From the IMG/VR virus record IMGVR_UViG_2728369187_000006, positions 1 to 20,975 of that record: DNA of 20,975 nucleotides; one strand, given 5' to 3'. Shown piece after piece: positions 1 to 10,927 of the stretch. Source of the stretch: a virus (Duplodnaviria > Heunggongvirae > Uroviricota > Caudoviricetes). Position 1 is the first letter of the stretch; each line of letters begins with the position of its first letter. The notes under the pieces were generated by a model, which saw only the letters and a list, made by a program, of their open reading frames with translations, was not told where the DNA came from and made no database searches. A program made the position numbers and the translations under genes.

Positions 1-753
1 GTCCAGCCCCATCTCAAGGATCATCGGGCGGTGAGCATTGCCAAGCCCGGTGTGACGCTCCTCAAAATCTTTCTTCAGGCGCTCATAAGCCTGATCTGAC
101 AGCGTCTGCTCTGTACGCAACACACCCGACGTCACCGCGCCATTGCTGAACAGTCTGGCCCCGTGCTCTTCGGTCGCTGCCGCCAGCGATATTGCCTCGC
201 GGGCATAGGCGATGGGATTCAGCCCCACCAGTCCGTCCAGCGTCAGCGTGCGCACATGCCAGATATCCTCCTGGCTCAGTACATCCGTGGAGCCATCCGG
301 GAATGTGACCTGATAGACCGGCTCCCAGCTACTGTTAAGCTTCGGTACCACACTGCCGGGATCGACGGGCAGCAGTTCAGCCACTTCGCCAAATGCTTTC
401 ACTTTGTAGGCGTAAAAGTTTCCCCGCAGGCACAGACAGGTGACCACCAGCTCCCAGAACTCCTGCGGCGTCATATAGCCATTGGGATGCGTGGAGATCA
501 GCTTATGCAGACGTTCGCCAGTGGCTCTCTGCTTCAGGCTGCCGTTCAGGTGATACAGGTTGCAGGGCAACATCCCGACCGACTCCGCCAGCACCCTGAC
601 ACAGGAAAAAACCGCCGTCAGTCGCATGGCCCGCTGGCTGCTGATCTGCTTTCCGGTATAGGTGTCGTAGGACAACCCGATAGCATCCGCCAGCTCTGCT
701 GGCGTGGTCACCGGTGCGTCACTTTTTCGTTGAAATAATCCCGAAAAGAACAC
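1..753 (-). CDS. Phage portal protein, HK97-like family; N-terminal part only, gene continues past the left window edge
   Basis: Hand translation of the minus strand gives an open frame from a GTG at 753..751 to position 1 ([27 protein letters not shown]...MRLTAVFSCVRVLAESVGMLP...) that resembles HK97-type portal N-termini from memory. It lies directly downstream of the large terminase. Start codon is uncertain (GTG 753 or ATG 627). Confidence 0.75.
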   Translation of the reverse strand, partial: MFFSGLFQRKSDAPVTTPAELADAIGLSYDTYTGKQISSQRAMRLTAVFSCVRVLAESVGMLPCNLYHLNGSLKQRATGERLHKLISTHPNGYMTPQEFWELVVTCLCLRGNFYAYKVKAFGEVAELLPVDPGSVVPKLNSSWEPVYQVTFPDGSTDVLSQEDIWHVRTLTLDGLVGLNPIAYAREAISLAAATEEHGARLFSNGAVTSGVLRTEQTLSDQAYERLKKDFEERHTGLGNAHRPMILEMGLD

Positions 754-935
754 TATTTACCTCCGCCGACAGACAGCTGTGTACGATCGAGATATCGCGC
801 CACCAGCCACGACCAGAACAGGCACAGCGCCCCGGCAACAACAAAACCCGCCGGGGGATAAATCAGCCAGGCACCATATGCCAGCAAAAGCGCACCCAGC
901 ACGCCCACCAGAGGCGCGAGAATCAGCATGATCAT
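753..935 (-). CDS. Small hydrophobic hypothetical protein between terminase and portal
   Basis: 60-aa ORF with one long hydrophobic stretch, tightly packed between the large terminase stop (947) and the portal start. No recognisable family. Confidence 0.35.
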
Positions 936-946
936 AATTACCTCAG

Positions 947-2680
947 TTAAAGCGAGCGGATCCCGTAGGACTCAATGTGGTCAGACAGCGTGTCTTCTTT
1001 CTCGTACAGCATGGCTCTGCCAACCGCCATAATCAGCGTAACTGCACCATCGATTTTGTTTTCCGCCTGCTCTTTGACGGGTTTCACCACGTCATCGTTA
1101 CCCGGAATGGTTTTGCCGACCACGTTGCCGATACACCAGGTCATGATGGGATTGCCGTCATGATGAAAGCGCCCCGATTCAATTGCCGCTTCCAGCTCTT
1201 TCATCGGGTCGGACATGTTGGTGTAGTTCTGAATGATAGTGATGGGGTTCAGGTCTTCATCAGCAAGGTCATGTGACAACCCGGTCGCCCCGAAGGGGTC
1301 GATGGGTGACTCACTGACCGGGCTGATTTTGTTCGCCGCTTTGGCCTCCTCGAGGATGTAGCGATAATCCACCTCCGCACCATCGGTAACGGTCAGAACG
1401 CCCATTTCCACCCATTTCTGAAAGCGTTCGGCTGTCCGTCGATCTTCATTTTTCTCGACGCTGTACACCGTGTCATATGGTACCCAGAAACGCGGGGCCA
1501 CACTGTAGTAATGCGTTTTACCGTCAATCTCGCGGGTATAAAGTCGCGCCATGCTGTTCATATCCAGCTTACGCGCCAGGTCAAAGGCCAGAATGCACGG
1601 CTGCCCCTCGAACTGCTCAAGGGTCAGTGATTTATCCTCGCAGATCTGCCAGCTCACCAGGTTGAAATACGCCGAACGCGCCGACACCCAGATATTGAGG
1701 TGTTTTGTTTTAAAGACGTTTGCCAGACGGGCGTTATTTTTCGCACGCTGCTGCTGACTTAACAAAAATTCGCGATAAACCGACACGCCAATATTTGGAT
1801 TGGCTTTTTCCAGCACCTGCGGGTCGGTCCAGTCGTCACCTTCATCAACGGTATAGATGATCCCGAACAGTTCATCGTTGGGTACCGAACCGTTGAGCAT
1901 CTCGATGACTTCCCGCCGTTTGTCGTAGCACGGCCCCTCAATGTTGTACCCGGCGGTAGTGATAGCCCACATCAGTGGCTGACGTCGCGCCCCCATCCCG
2001 GTAAGCATCGTGGTGTAAAGCGCATCTGTGGCGTGCTCGTGATATTCATCCACCACCGCACAGTGGGGTGATGAACCATCACCGGGGTTACCAATCAGCG
2101 GTTCAAACCGCGCCCCATCCTCCGGACGGTTCATGTTTGAGGCGTTAACCTCAATCCCGAACGCTTCCGTCAGCATGGGTGTGCGTTTACACATCAGTCG
2201 CGCCGGGCGAAAGACTTCCCACGCCTGTTTCTCTGTCGTGGCACCGGAATACACTTCCGCGCCGAACTCGTTATCACAGGCAAAACAATACAGGGCAACA
2301 CCGGCAGAGATTGCCGATTTGCCGTTCTTACGGGGGATTTCGGTATACACCTCCCGGAAGCGGCGCAGCCGGGAGCCTTTATTGACCCAGCCAAACGCGC
2401 AGCAGATCACAAAGAGCTGCCACGGCTCCAGCGTGATGGGCATCCGTTTAAATGCCCACTCACCCTTGGTGTGCGGCAACAGCTGAATAAATTTGGCGGC
2501 CCGTTCAGCCAGATCCTTGTCGAAGCGGTAACGAAACGACTTACTTTTTTCCGCCATCAGGTCATCAAGATGGCGCTGGCAGGCCTGAATCACAAACTGG
2601 CAGGCCACAATCTTTCCGCGCACGACATCCCGGGCATACTGATTGGCAGCATTTACGTTGGGGTAAGATTTCCGGCTCAT
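947..2680 (-). CDS. Terminase large subunit
   Basis: 577-aa ORF whose sequence and length fit phage large terminases (ATPase plus nuclease). Its 5' end overlaps the small-terminase stop (2677..2680), suggesting translational coupling. Confidence 0.88.
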
Positions 2681-3180
2681 GACTCGATAATTTTCAGAAA
2701 CGGGTTAGTGGCTTTCTTCTTCCCCGCCAGGCCAATCAGACGCTGGCGGCTGCTGGGGTCGAGTCCGAGCATTGCCCCCGTACTGCTCATCTCGGACTCC
2801 TGTTCTTTTTTGGCGGTCAGCTCCGGATTTTTGACCATGCCGCCCATTGCACCGGTGATGGTGTTGCCCTGTCTGGCAATATTTTTCACGGCACGTCGCC
2901 AGAACTCATAGGCCACGCACCACCGCTCAAGCACTGCGAGGTCAGTCACGCACAGCAGGCCCTGACCGCAGAGTTCTTTGGTTGTCAGTTGCCACATGAT
3001 CGTGGCGAGAGGAAGCTCTTCTTCAGCGAACCACTCCGGTGGCTCAACACCTTTGATGGGCGTAAAAACAGGTTCATCTTTGTTCAGGGCTCGCTTGCCG
3101 GGGTTTCCGGCCAGCGCCTTGCGCGCCGTTGGCTTAGGGCGACGCCCGGAACGCCCCACCGTTCCAGCCATATGCGGCAC
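2677..3180 (-). CDS. Terminase small subunit (P27-like family)
   Basis: 167-aa ORF immediately upstream of the large terminase. Basic N-terminus ([22 protein letters not shown]) resembles P27-family small terminases from memory. Confidence 0.8.
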
Positions 3181-3296
3181 TCCTGGTTAAATTTCATTTT
3201 TCGCGGGTATAAAAAAACGATGGGGCGGGCAGTCCTGAAGACGTCAGGGTACAGAGATTTGACCCGCCCCTCCCCTCTGGCAGTGGGAACTGGTTC
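3181..3296. other. Candidate cos region between HNH endonuclease and small terminase
   Basis: Non-coding gap holding a G/C-rich inverted repeat (GGGGCGGG ... CCCGCCCC) inside AT-rich flanks. In HK97-like phages cos lies between the HNH gene and terS, and lambda cosN is similarly GGGCGG-rich. Exact cut sites cannot be determined from sequence. Confidence 0.35.
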
Positions 3297-3647
3297 TTAC
3301 TTCAGCCGTTCACGAGCCGTCTTCGTCTTATGACACGGCCAGCACAGGCTCTGCAGATTGCTGTCTGAATCTGTGCCGCCATGCGCTTTAGGAATGATGT
3401 GGTCAACGGTTTTCGCCTCACGCACCACACCAGCACGCAGACATAACTGACATAAACCTTTGTCACGCTTCAGGACACGCACGCGGATACCGTCCCACTT
3501 CGAACCATAACCGCGCTGATGACGGGATTGTCCTGGCTTGTATTGTTTCCAGCCTTCGCTTTTGTGGCTTTCACAATAGCCTGACGGATCAGTGGTGGTT
3601 TGGCGGCAGCCGCGAACGCGGCAGGCTTTTGGGGTTCGTGGGGGCAT
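3297..3647 (-). CDS. HNH endonuclease (terminase-associated)
   Basis: 116-aa ORF with cysteine pairs and an HNH core (VDHIIPKAHGGTDSDSNLQSLCWPCHKTKT), directly upstream of terS as in HK97-like packaging modules. Confidence 0.85.
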   Translation of the reverse strand: MPPRTPKACRVRGCRQTTTDPSGYCESHKSEGWKQYKPGQSRHQRGYGSKWDGIRVRVLKRDKGLCQLCLRAGVVREAKTVDHIIPKAHGGTDSDSNLQSLCWPCHKTKTARERLK

Positions 3648-3897
3648 AAAACCTCCAATGGTTGAAAGGTGATAGTCCGATAATTAGGCTACTGCGTGCC
3701 ATATTTAACACAACAGCTGAATATTAGGTGCTGATGGTTTACCTGCTCATTTATACAAATAATATATAACTAATCGATAATTTTTTGTATTTCACCTAGA
3801 GTCCTAAGGTTTCACCATTCTGGTCCTTCCATACAATCTAAAAAAATAATAATGTAGACATCGCCGTAATTATGCGGTTTATACCCATAGGTGATTT

Positions 3898-4182
3898 ATG
3901 CCAGAAGTTACAGGTTCTCTCGAAAAAGGATTCGAGATCAAAGAAACTATCTCTGAATTGGTATTTAACCAAGAGGGTTTGGTTATTGACCATTCAGTAC
4001 AGGTTGATGGTGTTACGCATCGTATCGTCAAATATGACAATAATGGTAGCGTCGCCATCCGCTATGATACTGATACAGGTAGCAATTTTTCGCTATCACT
4101 GAACAATGTAAAACTCAAAATGACTGACAACAATGATCCTAAGAATACAGTAACTGCTACGTTCTCAAGGAACGATGGCTAA
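3898..4182 (+). CDS. Hypothetical small protein (moron candidate), opposite strand to the surrounding late genes
   Basis: 94-aa ORF in a visibly AT-rich island, with AGGTGA 3 nt before the ATG and an intrinsic terminator just downstream. No family recognised. Confidence 0.5.
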   Translation: MPEVTGSLEKGFEIKETISELVFNQEGLVIDHSVQVDGVTHRIVKYDNNGSVAIRYDTDTGSNFSLSLNNVKLKMTDNNDPKNTVTATFSRNDG

Positions 4183-4188
4183 TGACAA

Positions 4189-4215
4189 GGGGCGCTTCGG
4201 CGCCCTTTTATCTTA
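4189..4215 (+). terminator. Rho-independent terminator after the moron ORF
   Basis: GC stem GGGCGC-TTCG-GCGCCC followed by TTTTATCTTATT, read directly from the sequence. Confidence 0.7.
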
Positions 4216-4297
4216 TTCAAACCTCAACATAAATTACAATAAATAAGATGCATAGGTTATTATCAAGCGACTTAACCATTCTGGACTTAATTGTTTC

Positions 4298-4558
4298 TCA
4301 TCTTAATTCCATAGAGTGATTTTCTATTTTACGTATATCAGCCTTATCTCGATTGCATTGTCCAAGGGCTGATAACAGACTCACATTTAAATTAAAACTG
4401 GCCCCATATGTCAGCGGTTCTGGAATAACTGGTTGTGGGGTTTCAGCGGTCAGACTCACCGGTAGTGGTATCGCCGGAACTTGTACGTAAACTGTCCGCG
4501 AACTTCCGCAACCGGTCAGCAGCGGCAGCAGGCACAGGACGTGAAGCACAATCATCAT
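4298..4558 (-). CDS. Rz1: Rz1-like o-spanin lipoprotein, overlapping the 3' part of Rz in another frame
   Basis: Internal start (MMIVLHVLCLLPLLTGCGSS...) gives a signal peptide with lipobox LTGC and a proline-rich mature part, in the +1 frame relative to Rz. Start codon choice is uncertain. Confidence 0.55.
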   Translation of the reverse strand: MMIVLHVLCLLPLLTGCGSSRTVYVQVPAIPLPVSLTAETPQPVIPEPLTYGASFNLNVSLLSALGQCNRDKADIRKIENHSMELR

Positions 4559-4835
4559 CCGCAACAGCCACTTTGATATCTTCCTGGGTTCTCTGTGACT
4601 CCAGTGCGATCTGCTGTTTTGCATGCTGGTTAGCCTCCAGAACTGTATTGATGATTTGCATTGATTGCAGGCCGTTATTAGTAATGGCAGTTGCTGATTC
4701 AGCATTTCGTACAGCCTCATCAGCGCGTTTCTTTTCGTGCTGATATTTGCTGTAGTAGTGGTTGGCAGACCAGATAAAAGAACCAATGACAGTAACGAAG
4801 AATGCAGCGATAACCAGCTTATAGCTCAACTTCAT
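4443..4835 (-). CDS. Rz: Rz-like i-spanin
   Basis: 130 aa with an N-terminal TM segment (LVIAAFFVTVIGSFIW) and a charged, coiled-coil-like periplasmic part, immediately downstream of the endolysin. Confidence 0.75.
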   Translation of the reverse strand: MKLSYKLVIAAFFVTVIGSFIWSANHYYSKYQHEKKRADEAVRNAESATAITNNGLQSMQIINTVLEANQHAKQQIALESQRTQEDIKVAVADDDCASRPVPAAAADRLRKFADSLRTSSGDTTTGESDR

Positions 4836-5295
4836 TTACCACCCCACCAGCCTCTTTAAACCGGGCAATCAGGTCACCGATTTTATGTTCATACTGACCG
4901 TAACCAGCACCCGGCAAAGAAGCCCAGATATTACTGCAACGGTCGATTGCCTGCCGGATATCGCCGCGATCAATCATAGGTAAAGCGCCACGCTCTTTAA
5001 TCTGCTGCAATGCCACAGCATCCTGGCTTTTTGGAGAGAAGTCTTTCAAGCCAAGCTGCTTACAATAAGCATCCCACCAGCGTGAAAGAATCTGATAACG
5101 ACCAGCTGCTGTTGATTTAAGTTTCGGGTTTAGTGTGACAAGTTTGCGAGGATGATCGGAGTAATCAGTGAATAGTTCGCCTCCGACAATAACGTCATAA
5201 CCGTAGTTACATGTCGGTTGCCGTCCGTTATCCGTTCCTTCTGACCATGCCACCATATCGAGGAAAGCTTTACGCTGGGAATTTAGTACCTGCAT
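4819..5295 (-). CDS. R: Endolysin, lambda R-type lytic transglycosylase
   Basis: 158 aa, near-identical from memory to lambda R (QRKAFLDM.AWSEGTDNGRQ...GYDVIVGGELFTDYSDHPRKLVTLNPKLKST.AGRYQ.LSRWWDAY...). Confidence 0.93.
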   Translation of the reverse strand: MQVLNSQRKAFLDMVAWSEGTDNGRQPTCNYGYDVIVGGELFTDYSDHPRKLVTLNPKLKSTAAGRYQILSRWWDAYCKQLGLKDFSPKSQDAVALQQIKERGALPMIDRGDIRQAIDRCSNIWASLPGAGYGQYEHKIGDLIARFKEAGGVVNEVEL

Positions 5296-5298
5296 AAA

Positions 5299-5625
5299 TT
5301 ACTCCTTAGAGCCACCAAACTTGTTACCGATTACTCTCATTGCAGCCCCACGAATTGCATCGACCCCGATCAGCCCCACCCCACCACCAATGGCAACAGA
5401 AAGCGATTTAGGCCATCCGACATACTCAAGAGCGGATGCAAAAGTCAGCGTCAGAGCACCACAGAGCAAAATCTCGAGCGTTTTTCGTTTCCAGCCACCA
5501 CCACTGCCAAAATAGGCAATACGTAAACCAGCCATAACGATCGACATAATCACTGCGCCCAGCGGTGTGTCTCCACGCCACCAGCTCTGGACCAACTCCA
5601 GCCAAGTATTTGGGTTATGAGGCAT
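5299..5625 (-). CDS. Putative holin (class I-like, three hydrophobic segments)
   Basis: 108-aa ORF with three predicted TM segments immediately upstream of the endolysin. Not lambda S by sequence; called on position and topology. Confidence 0.62.
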   Translation of the reverse strand: MPHNPNTWLELVQSWWRGDTPLGAVIMSIVMAGLRIAYFGSGGGWKRKTLEILLCGALTLTFASALEYVGWPKSLSVAIGGGVGLIGVDAIRGAAMRVIGNKFGGSKE

Positions 5626-5799: not shown

Positions 5800-5844
5800 A
5801 AGCTGTGTGGCGAAGTAACCACTCTTAACAGATTACAATGTTTT

Positions 5845-5873
5845 TTGCGTACGCGTTAGCATTTTCGTAAAAT
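5845..5873 (+). promoter_or_regulatory. Candidate sigma70 promoter for the cargo operon
   Basis: TTGCGT (5845..5850), 17-nt spacer, TAAAAT (5868..5873), about 30 nt upstream of the 5905 ATG. AT-rich context, so chance matches are likely. Confidence 0.3.
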
Positions 5874-5904
5874 ACATTACCTTGCAACCATTTCAGTATA
5901 AAAA

Positions 5905-7695
5905 ATGAGCACAGAATTAAAACTAAAGAAAATTATGGCATCGTCTAAAATTGAGCCATTTATTAGACATATTCGTTTTCCTTTTTTTAAAAACCTTGCA
6001 GAGGGTAGCAAGATTGATTTTGAGTATCCAATTACAGCATTAGTTGGTCAAAACGGAACCAATAAAAGTTCTGTTTTAAGAGCCCTATTCGGTTCTCCAA
6101 ACAACTATTCTCTGGGTAGCTTATGGTTTTCTACAGATGTAGATGAGATTAAAGATGGTGGTCGTTCTAGATTTATTTATGGATATTATGACAAAGCTAC
6201 TGATTCAATTGTTGAAGTAATTAAAACTCGAATCTCTAAAGAAAATGATCCTGATTACTGGGAACCATCCAGACCATTAAAATCCGACAACATGGCTCCA
6301 ATGCCTAGTACAAAAATCTCAACCAATCAACTAAGGACTAGGTGGAAAGCTATTGACAAAAATGTAATATATTTAGATTTCAGAGCAACTATCAGTGCAT
6401 TTGATAAGTTCTTTTATCACTCTGATTTTCATACATACCCTAAGAAAGATTATCTTAGAAAACGCAGTCAGATGCTAAAAGACATTATAGATAACGATCT
6501 TAAAAAATATCAACCTCATAAAGGAAAAAAAGACAAGCTATTTGTTAACACTTTATTAGAAAAAAGTAAGGTAGAGGCAATCAGCAAGATTTTAGGTCGC
6601 AAATACACAAGCATCCGCCTTATTGAACATAGCTTATTCACTAATGACAAAGCTCCCACAATTATTCTTCAATCAGAAAACTTAAAATATTCTGAAGCTT
6701 TCGCAGGCAGTGGGGAATTTGCTGTATCTATATTAGTGCATAAACTAATGGATAGCCCTGATGCATCTTTAATTCTGCTAGATGAACCTGAAGTATCACT
6801 TCACCCTTCTGCTCAATGTCAATTGATGGAATTTTTATCAGAACAAGCACTTAAAAAGAAACATCAAATTGTCATATCCACACATTCATCAACAATAGTA
6901 AAAGACTTGCCTAAAAATGCCATAAAATTATTCTGTCTGAATGATAAAATAGGAAAGGTTGATGTTCTTCAAAATGTCAGCCCAGAAGAATCTTTCTTTA
7001 TTCTTGGTGAACGCATTGATAAAAGAACCGTTATTGTAGAAGATCGGTTAGCGAAGAGGTTTGTAGAAAAGGCGCTTAAAGCGGGTGGTGAAGCATTATT
7101 AAACTCCTTCGAAGTAAAACATGTTCCTGGAGGAGCGGGAAGTATTCTTCAAACTTTGGCTGTGCCTTTATGTGTTGCCAATGTTAAAAACGTTATTTTC
7201 TTATTAGATGGTGACCAATCGAGAACTGATGATTATCCAACTTCTGATTCCATACCAGAAAATCAAAACACAAACCTTCAAAACATCATAAAAGAAATAA
7301 CCAATCAAGATATAAAATTTAGTTGTGATGGTTCTAATGGCTCATCAAATAACAATCAAAAATACAAAATGCAAAGAAATTTTATCGATTTCATCCACGA
7401 TAAAATTGCTTTTCTTCCTGTTTATACTCCTGAAGCATTTCTTATTGAGAATGTTCATGGTGATTATAAAGAATATAAAGATCAAATCCCCAAAAACATT
7501 CAAGATGCTAAAGAAATCACCAAAGAACTTTGTAAGTTAGACACAGGGTTGGAAAACGTTACCAGTGACGATATCTTTGAAACACAAATCAGAATTCTTA
7601 ATAAAATACCAAATAATCATGAAGTGTTAACAAAAACTCGAGAGTTGCTGCAAATCTTTTTAGATAATGATACTATCAGACCAAGAGTGAGGTAG
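5905..7695 (+). CDS. OLD-family-like ABC ATPase with putative C-terminal TOPRIM nuclease domain (cargo gene 1)
   Basis: 596 aa. Variant Walker A (ALVGQNGTNKSSVLRAL), Walker B with LHP (SLILLDEPEVSLHPSAQ) typical of AAA_21/OLD ATPases, then TOPRIM-like motifs (TVIVEDRLAKRFVE, glycine-rich PGGAGS, DxD-like FLLDGDQ). AT-rich. Family assignment is by eye, not by HMM. Start may instead be ATG 5935. Confidence 0.7.
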   Translation: MSTELKLKKIMASSKIEPFIRHIRFPFFKNLAEGSKIDFEYPITALVGQNGTNKSSVLRALFGSPNNYSLGSLWFSTDVDEIKDGGRSRFIYGYYDKATDSIVEVIKTRISKENDPDYWEPSRPLKSDNMAPMPSTKISTNQLRTRWKAIDKNVIYLDFRATISAFDKFFYHSDFHTYPKKDYLRKRSQMLKDIIDNDLKKYQPHKGKKDKLFVNTLLEKSKVEAISKILGRKYTSIRLIEHSLFTNDKAPTIILQSENLKYSEAFAGSGEFAVSILVHKLMDSPDASLILLDEPEVSLHPSAQCQLMEFLSEQALKKKHQIVISTHSSTIVKDLPKNAIKLFCLNDKIGKVDVLQNVSPEESFFILGERIDKRTVIVEDRLAKRFVEKALKAGGEALLNSFEVKHVPGGAGSILQTLAVPLCVANVKNVIFLLDGDQSRTDDYPTSDSIPENQNTNLQNIIKEITNQDIKFSCDGSNGSSNNNQKYKMQRNFIDFIHDKIAFLPVYTPEAFLIENVHGDYKEYKDQIPKNIQDAKEITKELCKLDTGLENVTSDDIFETQIRILNKIPNNHEVLTKTRELLQIFLDNDTIRPRVR

Positions 7696-7698
7696 ATA

Positions 7699-8739
7699 AT
7701 GGCTAAAAAGATACACGTTTACGATTTCTTTTCCGGCTGCGGCGGAACCAGTGTAGGCCTAAAAGCGGTGGGAATGGAAATTATTTTCGGTTTAGATATT
7801 GATCTAGACTCCGCTAACACCTTTAAAATGAATAATCCATTTGCACATTTTATCAATGGTGATATCAAAGATACACACGTTGAGGAAATTAAGCATCTGG
7901 TTTGTGCGTCAACACAAAGCAAAGCTCTAACCCTATTTTGTGGTTGTGCTCCATGTCAACCATTCTCGAAACAAAATAAAATACGGAACGAGGATGATCC
8001 GAGAAAAGATCTGCTTACTGAGTTTGCACGGTTTGTCTCTTATTATACGCCAGACTTTGTACTGGTAGAGAATGTACCAGGAATCCAAAATGTCGATATT
8101 AACAATGGAAATTTCCAGAAATTTCTTGAGGTTTTAGCACATCATCACTACAACGTTGATTTTGGTGTGATTCCTGCGTTGTGGTTCGGGGTTCCTCAAA
8201 CACGTGAACGTTTTGTTTTACTGGCGTCAAAACACACGAATATTAAGCTTCCATCACAAACTCATGATGGATTAAAAACTCCGTATGCAACTGTCAGAGA
8301 CTGGATCGGCGGATTACCTCCTATTGCTGCCGGTGAAACTCATAAAGATGTTATGGATCATACAGCAGCCAAACTATCTGATCTAAATATTAAACGTATT
8401 AAAGCGACTCCTGAAGGAAAAGGTAGAGAATCTTGGCCTGAAGAACTTATACTAAAATGCCATAAAAAATATAAAGGGCATACTGATGTTTATGGACGGC
8501 TTTCTTGGGACAAACCAGCAAGTGGATTAACAACTAGATGTATAAGCTATTCGAATGGACGTTTCGGACATCCAGAGCAAGATAGGGCTATTTCTGTTAG
8601 AGAGGCTGCGTTATTACAGACTTTCCCATTAGACTATTCCTTCACAGGCTCTTTAGTCTCGAAAGCCAAACAGATAGGGAATGCAGTCCCTCCCAAGATG
8701 GCTGAAGCTCTTGGAAGGGCTATCATCGCATCACTTTAA
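7699..8739 (+). CDS. DNA (cytosine-5)-methyltransferase (cargo gene 2)
   Basis: 346 aa with canonical m5C motifs: I (FSGCGG), IV (PCQPFS), VI (ENVPG), VIII (QTRERF), X (GNAVPP). Starts 4 nt after the upstream stop, with GAGG inside the upstream gene end, so likely translationally coupled. Confidence 0.9.
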   Translation: MAKKIHVYDFFSGCGGTSVGLKAVGMEIIFGLDIDLDSANTFKMNNPFAHFINGDIKDTHVEEIKHLVCASTQSKALTLFCGCAPCQPFSKQNKIRNEDDPRKDLLTEFARFVSYYTPDFVLVENVPGIQNVDINNGNFQKFLEVLAHHHYNVDFGVIPALWFGVPQTRERFVLLASKHTNIKLPSQTHDGLKTPYATVRDWIGGLPPIAAGETHKDVMDHTAAKLSDLNIKRIKATPEGKGRESWPEELILKCHKKYKGHTDVYGRLSWDKPASGLTTRCISYSNGRFGHPEQDRAISVREAALLQTFPLDYSFTGSLVSKAKQIGNAVPPKMAEALGRAIIASL

Positions 8740-9120: not shown

Positions 9121-10116
9121 TCAGGCTAGCACACCAATTGCCAACGCACGGTCGATAAAACGAAATATCAGCTCCAGCTGGGAGCCATACTTCTCTTCAA
9201 ATGCCACGGTATCCGCATGCAGCTCGTCGTGATGCTTTCTGCACAAAGGCAACACAAAGAGGTCATGCGCTTTTGTACCCATTCCACCCTGACCGTGGCC
9301 TATCAGGTGGTGGGGATCATCAGCAGGTTTTCCACAACATGCGCACGGCTGCGTCTTAACCCAGCGCGTGTACTTTTCATTAACCCAGCGGCGACGTTTT
9401 GGGCGTAACATAAAAGACTCCGGCGACTCCGGATCCACTTTCAGCGCCAGCACCTTTTTCGCCTTATCCTGGATGATGCTGGTGGCAGGAACCGAAGGCA
9501 CCAGGTCACTTTCCCGGGTGACAGATGGCACAACAGGCTTCGGTAATCTCAGTGCCTTACGGGCTGCACTTTCCGGTAAGGCATCCGCCAGATCATTACG
9601 AACCAGCCACCAGCACAGTTCCGGCATTGTCACAACGTGACTATCATCAAAACCGAGATCCCGACGCACAACAGACAACACCCAGCGGGCACAGTTATCC
9701 GTTGCCATTGATTCCAGCCGTTCCGTGAACTGATCGCGCAGCTGGTTATCACAGTGCCAGCACAGACGGATTGCGCCCGGAGCGTGTCGCATTGTGGTAA
9801 TGTTCTCGCTGTGCCAGTCGGAATGAGGCCACTGACAGCCCTTTTCACGAAGTAACCAGCTTTCAAGACATTCCACGCCACCAGCACGACGGATCACTGC
9901 CTCATTGCGGAACACGGCCCGAACGGCAGGATCATCCACCAGCGGTTGTGATGCCGCCGGAACTGCACCACTGGCGAAAGATGAATAACGTTCCGGCTCA
10001 GGCTCCAGCAGGACACGCCCCTGCATAAACAGGGGCATCAACTCTGAACCTGGCCTGAACAATACGATCCCCATACGCGGGGCAACTTCAGGGGTCAGTA
10101 GTGCTCTCACGGTCAC
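9121..10116 (-). CDS. DUF968-family protein (YdfU-like), C-terminal Cys/His-rich putative nuclease-like domain
   Basis: 331 aa with C-terminal CACCGK...HHLIGHGQGG...CRKHHDELH. Resembles DUF968 proteins of E. coli lambdoid prophages from memory. Confidence 0.7.
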   Translation of the reverse strand: MTVRALLTPEVAPRMGIVLFRPGSELMPLFMQGRVLLEPEPERYSSFASGAVPAASQPLVDDPAVRAVFRNEAVIRRAGGVECLESWLLREKGCQWPHSDWHSENITTMRHAPGAIRLCWHCDNQLRDQFTERLESMATDNCARWVLSVVRRDLGFDDSHVVTMPELCWWLVRNDLADALPESAARKALRLPKPVVPSVTRESDLVPSVPATSIIQDKAKKVLALKVDPESPESFMLRPKRRRWVNEKYTRWVKTQPCACCGKPADDPHHLIGHGQGGMGTKAHDLFVLPLCRKHHDELHADTVAFEEKYGSQLELIFRFIDRALAIGVLA

Positions 10117-10117
10117 C

Positions 10118-10927
10118 TCAATGAACGGTATCGAGCAGCTTTAACAGCTCAGGGAATCGGGATTCGAAGAAATGCGGCTGCGTCTCGCGCGGATTTGCGG
10201 GACTGGTGATATTCTTGCCGAACATGCAGCCTTTCGCTGTCAGCGACCAGAATTTTTTGATGTTGTTAATCGCGGTACGGCTGTATCGTTCGCGCTGCTC
10301 GACGATCCCCAGCTTCACCATCTGGTGATATGCCTGATTAGCTGTCAGGCGGATACCATACTGCTTCAGCAGTGCACTCAGTGACAGCGTGGGGCGGCTT
10401 GAGCCATCAGGCGCGTCAGCAGGAGCATCAATGGCATAGCGCGGTGCCAGATTCGGTAAGCCAACAGCCTCCTGGAGTTTCTGACAGGCACCAAGCACTG
10501 AAGAGTTAGACAGGTTTAATTCCCGGCGCATAAAGTCCAGCAGAATCACACCAGCCTGCATCTTGTCAGCAGCCTGTCCGGATAATTTTTCCGGTGCGCT
10601 GGTTACCATGTCGAAAGTACGGATCACCTTCAGATGGAATGACGGGCTGATCCACATTGCATAGGCATACACCAGTTCTTTGCAGACATACGTCCCCTGG
10701 TTATTTCCGCCATTAATGACGCTAACTTGTTGATTTTGTTCCAGAGGCGGAATTCCACCCTCGGTGAAAAGTTGTTCAATCAATTCACAGGTTTGCTTAT
10801 TGGAGAGCCAGTATTTCGGGCGGTTTTTTTGTTCTCCCCCGGCTGCCCTGTGCAGATCGTTCAGGCTGTAACGCCCATAAGCATCACGACGAACTTCAAT
10901 ACCATCAATGACCATCAGATTATTCAT
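10118..10927 (-). CDS. KilA-N domain protein (putative antirepressor-like)
   Basis: N-terminus (MNNLMVIDGIEVRRDAYGRYSLNDLHRAAGGEQKNRPKYWL) matches the KilA-N domain pattern; 269 aa. Confidence 0.75.
   Translation of the reverse strand: MNNLMVIDGIEVRRDAYGRYSLNDLHRAAGGEQKNRPKYWLSNKQTCELIEQLFTEGGIPPLEQNQQVSVINGGNNQGTYVCKELVYAYAMWISPSFHLKVIRTFDMVTSAPEKLSGQAADKMQAGVILLDFMRRELNLSNSSVLGACQKLQEAVGLPNLAPRYAIDAPADAPDGSSRPTLSLSALLKQYGIRLTANQAYHQMVKLGIVEQRERYSRTAINNIKKFWSLTAKGCMFGKNITSPANPRETQPHFFESRFPELLKLLDTVH

Follow-up and report, generated by a model that had tools for sequence, protein, structure and literature searches.

The DNA analyzed here, referred to below as the window, is a stretch of 20,975 nucleotides whose minus strand carries, in this order, genes for holin, endolysin, Rz-like spanin, HNH endonuclease, the small terminase (terS), the large terminase (terL), and portal. 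The interval 3181-3296 was found to be exactly the 116-nt gap between the HNH stop codon and the terS start given by the ORF finder. The genes are as follows.

5625..5299, minus strand: holin gene.
5295..4819, minus strand: endolysin gene.
4835..4443, minus strand: Rz-like spanin gene.
3297..3647, minus strand: gene for an HNH endonuclease of 116 aa, the counterpart of HK97 gp74 and SfV orf53, adjoining the putative cos site upstream.
2677..3171, minus strand: terS, encoding a P27-family small terminase of 164 aa when read from ATG 3171 (PF05119, E=2.4e-21; PHROG 83, E=3.5e-60).
947..2680, minus strand: terL, encoding an HK97-type large terminase with a Terminase_1 ATPase and a nuclease domain (PF03354, E=3e-26; PF20441).
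1-946 region, minus strand: portal gene, an open frame that runs off the left edge of the window.

The HNH protein was recognized by both Pfam (PF01844, E=1.1e-16) and PHROG (PHROG 144 'HNH endonuclease', E=5e-45); its BLASTP alignment with HK97 gp74 (E=2e-5) is confined to the HNH motif. TerS shares 97-98% identity with its counterparts in SfV, SfI, and SfIV. The ORF finder placed the terS start at GTG 3180, and because this codon overlaps the AGGAG Shine-Dalgarno sequence (3180-3184), ATG 3171 is probably the true start; it is the one annotated in SfV and SfI and yields the conserved N-terminus MAGT.GRSGRR. The large terminase belongs to the Terminase_1 / HK97 TerL family, and a phmmer search matched it to the HK97 TerL crystal structure 6Z6D (E=4.3e-25). 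The HNH gene directly precedes terS and terL, the three genes sharing the minus strand, and these results bear out the HK97-like module that an earlier note on this DNA had suggested. Two small open reading frames were also seen near the left edge. The 191-aa ORF at 163-738 (plus strand) runs antisense within portal, its sole match is a 55-column PHROG without assigned function, and it is probably not a gene. The other, a hydrophobic ORF of 60 aa (935..753, minus strand), lies between terL and portal.

Several accessory segments were observed in the neighborhood of the packaging genes. An AT-rich stretch of 795 bp (3648-4442; GC 0.32-0.42 versus about 0.55 in the flanks) separates the Rz/Rz1-like genes from HNH, which in SfV are just about 27 bp apart. 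It contains a plus-strand ORF of 94 aa (3898-4182) with no Pfam, PHROG, or PADLOC match, followed by a bidirectional terminator-like hairpin at 4187-4208. The stretch occurred in 2 of 5426 complete E. coli genomes (strains C4 and PCP06173), compared with 1266 that carry the adjacent cos region, and it looks like a rare moron. Strain C4 (NZ_CP010121) agreed with the window at 100% over this insert and at 99.3% over the 301-nt HNH-terS junction. Just upstream of holin, two genes on the plus strand (5905-8739) run opposite to the late operon. The first encodes a 596-aa AAA_15/AAA_21 ATPase, which matched PADLOC HEC-04 (E=1.9e-36) and ATPase-Toprim_I-B (E=1e-24) and, more weakly, AriA, GajA, PtuA, and Old; the second encodes a 346-aa C-5 cytosine DNA methyltransferase (PF00145, E=3e-59). 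GC falls to 0.32 in 5800-5999, at the left edge of the pair, which is a candidate prophage-borne defence or anti-restriction cassette. Upstream of this cassette, 9121-10927 (minus strand) holds the genes for two proteins, one of the DUF968/HNHc_6 type (331 aa) and one with a KilA-N domain (269 aa); these are ordinary lambdoid accessory genes.

In a megablast search of phage genomes, the region matched Shigella phages SfV, SfI, SfII, and SfIV and Salmonella phage 118970_sal3 at 95-98% identity, and several of these records are linearised inside the HNH-terS gap. In SfI, virion DNA was sequenced outward from both ends and compared with the prophage, and 10 nt, 5'-TGCCCGCCCC-3', were missing; the authors concluded that packaging is of the cos type, as in SfV (PMC3636060). 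The SfI record ends ...TTCCGGACTGCCCGCCCC and begins GTCGTTTTTTTATACCCGCG, so the 10-mer is terminal and the next base is the start of the record. On the minus strand of the window, the same 10-mer occupies 3231..3222, with GAC directly before it and ATCGTTTTTTTATACCCGCG directly after it. According to the SfIV paper, SfI, SfII, SfIV, and SfV have one common cos site (PMC3851460). Compared with SfV and SfI, the window has the cohesive end TGCCCGCCCC with the same flanks and the same G-run block, and positions +1 to +50, counted from the top-strand cut, are identical except at +1.

More distant phages gave the same position. The phiP27 GenBank record has a misc_feature 'cos-site', CGCCCGCCCC, which aligned with 3222-3231. 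The records of phiE125 and phi644-2 end ...GGGACCGCCCGCTTC and begin GTC(G/A)AATTTTCACGCCCGCGAAA, and their published 10-base 3' extensions read 3'-GCGGGCGAAG-5' at the left end and 5'-CGCCCGCTTC-3' at the right end (PMC2920897). The record of Edwardsiella phage EPP-1 breaks at the homologous position, between ...GTACTGCCCGCCTC and CCCCAATTTTTATGACCGCGAAAAATG, and that of HK97, which ends ...AATGACCGCCGCCAAA and resumes with GTTTGAATTTAACGCTAACCCGATTTTTTT, aligned alike. The ends of the VW-6S record were considered as real termini and rejected as an assembly overlap, and this record was used for motif comparison only.

Experiments in these near-identical and related phages point to a top-strand cut between 3222 and 3221. 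We infer that the 10-nt overhang protrudes 3', from run-off logic and from the cases of HK97, phiE125, and phi644-2, the SfI paper giving the length and no polarity. With a 10-nt 3' overhang, the bottom strand would be cut between 3232 and 3231. Because the mapped ends and the cos annotations agree, the call of a cos site between HNH and terS, made in the earlier note, appears correct: the SfI end and the phiP27 annotation fall on 3222-3231, the genome ends that it had placed here coincide with those of close relatives, and the comparison with HK97-like cos sites that it had asked for placed the ends of HK97, phiP27, phiE125, phi644-2, and EPP-1 at one position. All these results suggested, with a probability of roughly 0.9, that the gap holds the cos packaging site of an SfV/SfI-like lambdoid E. 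coli prophage with an HK97-type packaging module. This site is already known and published for the SfV/SfI family, and it is ordinary biology.

The opposite possibility, that packaging proceeds by the headful (pac) mechanism and that the intergenic region is merely a spacer with a promoter or ribosome-binding site, found nothing in its favor among these data. The large terminase is of the HK97 cos type, SfI has defined ends, a reported difference from the pac phages Sf6 and SfX (PMC3636060, PMC3851460), and the non-coding conservation of the cos region spans families. We therefore give this possibility almost no weight.

To describe that conservation, 80 close IMG/VR loci, 62 loci from GTDB species genomes, and phage records were collected, the GTDB loci including Edwardsiella, Serratia, Xenorhabdus, Providencia, Morganella, Gilliamella, Kosakonia, Comamonas, and Acidovorax. 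Using CGCGAAA as an anchor, 101 distinct segments covering -80..+45 were obtained, numbered from the top-strand cut 3222/3221; CGCGAAA begins at +17 in all four phages with known ends. Ungapped column conservation revealed three blocks at fixed spacing across the 101 distinct relatives, which range from Enterobacterales to Comamonadaceae and Burkholderia. The elements of the region are listed below in the direction of transcription.

3256..3275, minus strand: upstream block, GGGGAGGGGCGGG plus TCAAATC, -54..-35; highly conserved without gaps in the 101 regions and containing the distal repeat arm 3263-3270.
3235..3255, minus strand: variable spacer from the G-run block to GAC, with low conservation.
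3232..3234, minus strand: GAC, 5' of the cohesive-end 10-mer; GAC in 84 and TAC in 12 of the 101 distinct relatives.
3222..3231, minus strand: putative cohesive end 5'-TGCCCGCCCC-3', the cosN equivalent; identical to the 10-nt gap of SfI and equal to the terS-proximal repeat arm plus 2 nt.
3187..3217, minus strand: predicted TerS-binding site and cosB equivalent, +5..+35, by sequence comparison; T-tract 3211-3217 and ACCCGCGAAAAATGAAATTTAA at 3187-3208.

The middle block consists of GAC and YGCC... at -13..-1 (3234..3222). The +5..+35 block is the most conserved of all in the 101 relatives, and its core, ACCCGCGAAAAAT, occupies +14..+26 (3208..3196). HK97 and the window both have TCAAATC at -41..-35 relative to the top-strand cut, so the upstream block stands at an equal distance from the cut in the two lineages. 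Among 62 distinct HK97-family loci, the cos region was nearly invariant from the G-run to the terS start. The G-run/TCAAATC block may be a cosQ-like termination element or a docking subsite for HNH, TerL, or portal. From the sequence comparison we propose it, tentatively and at somewhat less than even odds, as a further cos subsite common to HK97 (PF26841) and P27-type (PF05119) phages, from Enterobacterales to Burkholderiales; HK97 and P27-type phages likewise have the downstream 'ACCCG + A-tract' box in common. If this is true, two TerS families without detectable sequence similarity would read one common cos grammar. A published description of the G-run block in HK97-type cos was not found in a search that included a 2026 packaging review, key older papers lying outside that search.

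A conserved small hairpin in the spacer was also considered and rejected. The window has a local 5-bp dyad, CCTGA/TCAGG, at 3234-3248, and over 70 distinct spacers the mean best stem was 3.47 versus 3.29 in shuffles, with centers scattered from -16 to -31; the signal is thus weakly above shuffles and not positionally conserved.

It was also considered whether the site is cos by descent but no longer used, as the relic of a defective prophage. Two insertions of foreign composition, 3648-4442 and 5905-8739, do interrupt the late region, but both fall between genes. Moreover, HNH, terS, and terL are full-length and 97-99% identical to their counterparts in plaque-forming phages, portal stays open to the window edge, and all three conserved cos blocks are intact. 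We consider a relic site unlikely, at about the level of a minor reservation.

The gap also contains an inverted repeat. A repeat search identified arms GGGGCGGG at 3222-3229 and CCCGCCCC at 3263-3270, complementary at 8/8 positions and separated by a 33-nt spacer. The chance of such a repeat was estimated with dinucleotide shuffles of the region and by cutting the real window into tiles of 116 nt. Of the shuffles, 7.6% contained a perfect inverted repeat of 8 bp with a 3-60 nt spacer, as did 9% of the real tiles. When both arms had to be all G/C, the figure for shuffles fell to 0.085%, and the whole 20,975-nt window holds no other example. This repeat is therefore real. As an inverted repeat it is ordinary, what makes it unusual is that its arms are G/C only, and the earlier note was right to report a G/C-rich inverted repeat between HNH and terS.

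The likeness to lambda cosN that the same note had drawn from this palindrome did not survive. Lambda cos has a 12-nt 5' overhang, with nicks placed symmetrically within the partially palindromic cosN, and lambda uses the gpNu1/gpA terminase and IHF, without an HNH protein. If GGGGCGGG...CCCGCCCC were a two-fold-symmetric nicking site of this kind, the cuts would be symmetric about approximately 3246. The repeat is present, perfect over 8 bp, G/C-only, and rare by chance, and the SfV and SfIV records are linearised at window position 3238, between the arms. The experimentally defined cohesive end of SfI, however, is one arm, 3222-3231, and the ends of phiP27, phiE125, and EPP-1 agree with it, so that the cuts bracket the terS-proximal arm while the center of the dyad lies about 20 bp away. 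The arms are 41 bp apart from center to center, compared with an overhang of 10 nt. HK97 is without such a repeat, and no Pfam match to the lambda gpA or Nu1 family was obtained, TerL matching PF03354 and PF20441 and TerS matching PF05119.

The relatives also spoke against a functional dyad. In a covariation test, the segment -16..+4 was compared with -75..-26 in each of the 101 distinct cos regions anchored on CGCGAAA at +17, and the longest complementary run was recorded. It reached 8 bp or more in just 41 regions, nearly all of them belonging to the SfV clade. The overhang-equivalent changes to CGCCGCCTCA, CGCCACCTTG, and others in Xenorhabdus, Klebsiella, and Kosakonia, while the upstream block stays GGGGAGGGGCGGG; conversely, members of the TGCCCGCCCC class often have GGGGAGGGGGAGG as their upstream block, and just 4-5 complementary bases remain. 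No compensating change in the opposite arm was seen in either direction among the 101 distinct regions, and the G-run/overhang inverted repeat was absent from the 62 distinct HK97-family cos regions. Since the arms vary independently, a functional dyad was rejected, and a symmetric nicking site like that of lambda is, in our judgment, very improbable. These comparisons indicated that the GGGGCGGG/CCCGCCCC repeat is incidental: in one clade, the G-rich upstream block and the C-rich cohesive end are complementary by chance. The rarity of the G/C-only repeat is explained by separately conserved G-rich and C-rich elements that sit 41 nt apart.

The same stem could be read as a hairpin in the late RNA transcribed from the minus strand, or as an intrinsic terminator that would end or attenuate this transcript downstream of the lysis and HNH genes. 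In this orientation the stem GGGGCGGG/CCCGCCCC is followed by ATCG and then TTTTTTT, a run of seven T that starts 4 nt past the stem, and the minimum-free-energy fold (-27.7 kcal/mol) uses this stem. Nevertheless, a 33-nt loop and a T-run that does not adjoin the stem do not fit a Rho-independent terminator. The fold has a z-score of -1.23, with 19 of 200 shuffles folding at least as well; a terminator scan did not call it, and Rfam gave no match. The complementarity of the stem is not kept in relatives, whereas the T-tract is conserved within the +5..+35 DNA block at a fixed distance from the cut even where the stem is lacking. A terminator at this place is highly unlikely.

A second inverted repeat (3152-3163 / 3216-3227; 12 nt, 92%) was attributed to coding constraint and chance. 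It joins the region of the top-strand cut (CGCCCC/ATCGTT, cut at the slash) to terS codons 3-7 (AACGGTGGGGCG). The terS arm encodes Thr-Val-Gly-Arg, part of the TerS N-terminal arm, in which Gly6, Ser8, Gly9, and Arg10 are invariant. Because the repeat is weaker in SfV (10/12) and EPP-1 and phiE125 lack it altogether, it probably arose incidentally from coding constraint.

The biochemistry of HK97 offers a model for how a cos site of this layout could work. HK97 cohesive ends are 10-nt 3' overhangs, and the minimal TerS site, CTAACCCGATTTTTT, covers +15..+29; Arg128 of TerS reads a C:G pair at position 21, Arg7 lies in the minor groove, and both the C:G pair and the A-tract that comes after it are essential for the site (PMC11331095, PMC9410871). 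In the same system TerS stalls the motor at cos, and the HNH protein gp74 stimulates cos cleavage (PMC11331095, PMC9410871). The ACCCGCGAAAAAT core of the window is the same type of motif as the HK97 TerS site, shifted by 4 bp, and by analogy the +5..+35 block may be the TerS-binding site, equivalent to cosB. No sequence similarity between the window TerS (PF05119) and HK97 TerS gp1 (PF26841) was detected by BLASTP or hhalign. The AlphaFold model of the window TerS had a mean pLDDT of 77, with a core above 90, and Foldseek ranked the HK97 TerS-DNA complex 8POP_A second (probability 0.85, TM 0.56), but with E=0.79. Of the comparisons between the two TerS proteins, only that of the predicted and known folds is suggestive. 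In the N-terminal arm, Arg7-Ser8 of the window TerS occupy the same positions as Arg7-Ser8 of HK97, and a nearly invariant S141-R142 starts the C-terminal helix, like S127-R128 of HK97.

On this model, the terminase would cut concatemeric DNA so that 5'-TGCCCGCCCC-3' (3231..3222, minus strand) becomes the cohesive end. A TerS ring would recognize the box (ACCCGCG + A-tract) that lies at 3208..3196, toward terS and 14-26 bp downstream, and, once bound, could position the TerL nuclease over the cut site. TerL, with HNH, would then nick between 3222 and 3221 on the top strand and between 3232 and 3231 on the bottom strand, the adjacent HNH protein stimulating or sharing the cleavage as in HK97, and the G-run/TCAAATC block, 35-54 bp upstream, may serve as a further cos subsite. 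The terS-proximal end would enter the prohead first, and packaging would therefore run leftward in window coordinates, the direction that the earlier note had also given; here it follows from the terS-side end entering first.

This cos region was present in 1266 of the 5426 complete E. coli genomes, and the assignment would fix the virion genome ends and the packaging orientation for this prophage family. Annotation and PhageTerm-style calling of genome ends can make use of it, as can predictions of cos-dependent transduction or of satellite mobilisation. What the present analysis adds is modest and comparative, in that 101 relatives and HK97 allow the conserved cos blocks to be separated from an incidental palindrome. 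Modestly new are the G-run/TCAAATC block and the 'ACCCG + A-tract' box as elements common to two TerS families with no detectable similarity.

Among named systems, the cos of SfI, SfV, SfII, and SfIV shares with the window the 10-mer TGCCCGCCCC, the G-run block, the TerS-side block, and the gene order. Across the 116-nt gap, the window and SfI differ by four substitutions, three in the variable spacer and one A for G at +1, where SfV also has A. The window differs from the Shigella phages SfI and SfV in being an E. coli prophage and in carrying the rare 795-bp AT-rich insert between the lysis genes and HNH. The phages phiP27, phiE125, phi1026b, and phi644-2 have the same P27-family TerS, with about 50% identity for the Burkholderia proteins; phiP27 and the Burkholderia phages also have the 10-mer (CGCCCGCCCC or CGCCCGCTTC) at the homologous position and CGCGAAA at +17, whereas their spacer and last overhang bases have diverged and their G-run is a variant, GGGGAGGGGGGAG followed by AAAAAGTC.

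HK97 has the same order of HNH, cos, terS, and terL and a homologous TerL. It also has a G-run with TCAAATC at the equal cut distance (-41..-35), GAC before a C-rich 10-mer, and, downstream, ACCCG and then an A/T tract at the place to which HK97 TerS binds. It differs in its overhang, CGCCGCCAAA, in its TerS family (PF26841 versus PF05119 in the window), in the position of ACCCG (+18..+22 versus +14..+18 in the window), and in having no inverted repeat between the G-run and the overhang. Lambda cos (cosQ-cosN-cosB) follows the same logic, with a nicking site, a small-terminase site on the side of the terminase genes, and possibly an upstream termination element, but the window differs from it in that its 10-nt overhang would be 3', its dyad does not lie at the nicks, and its TerL is of the HK97 type.
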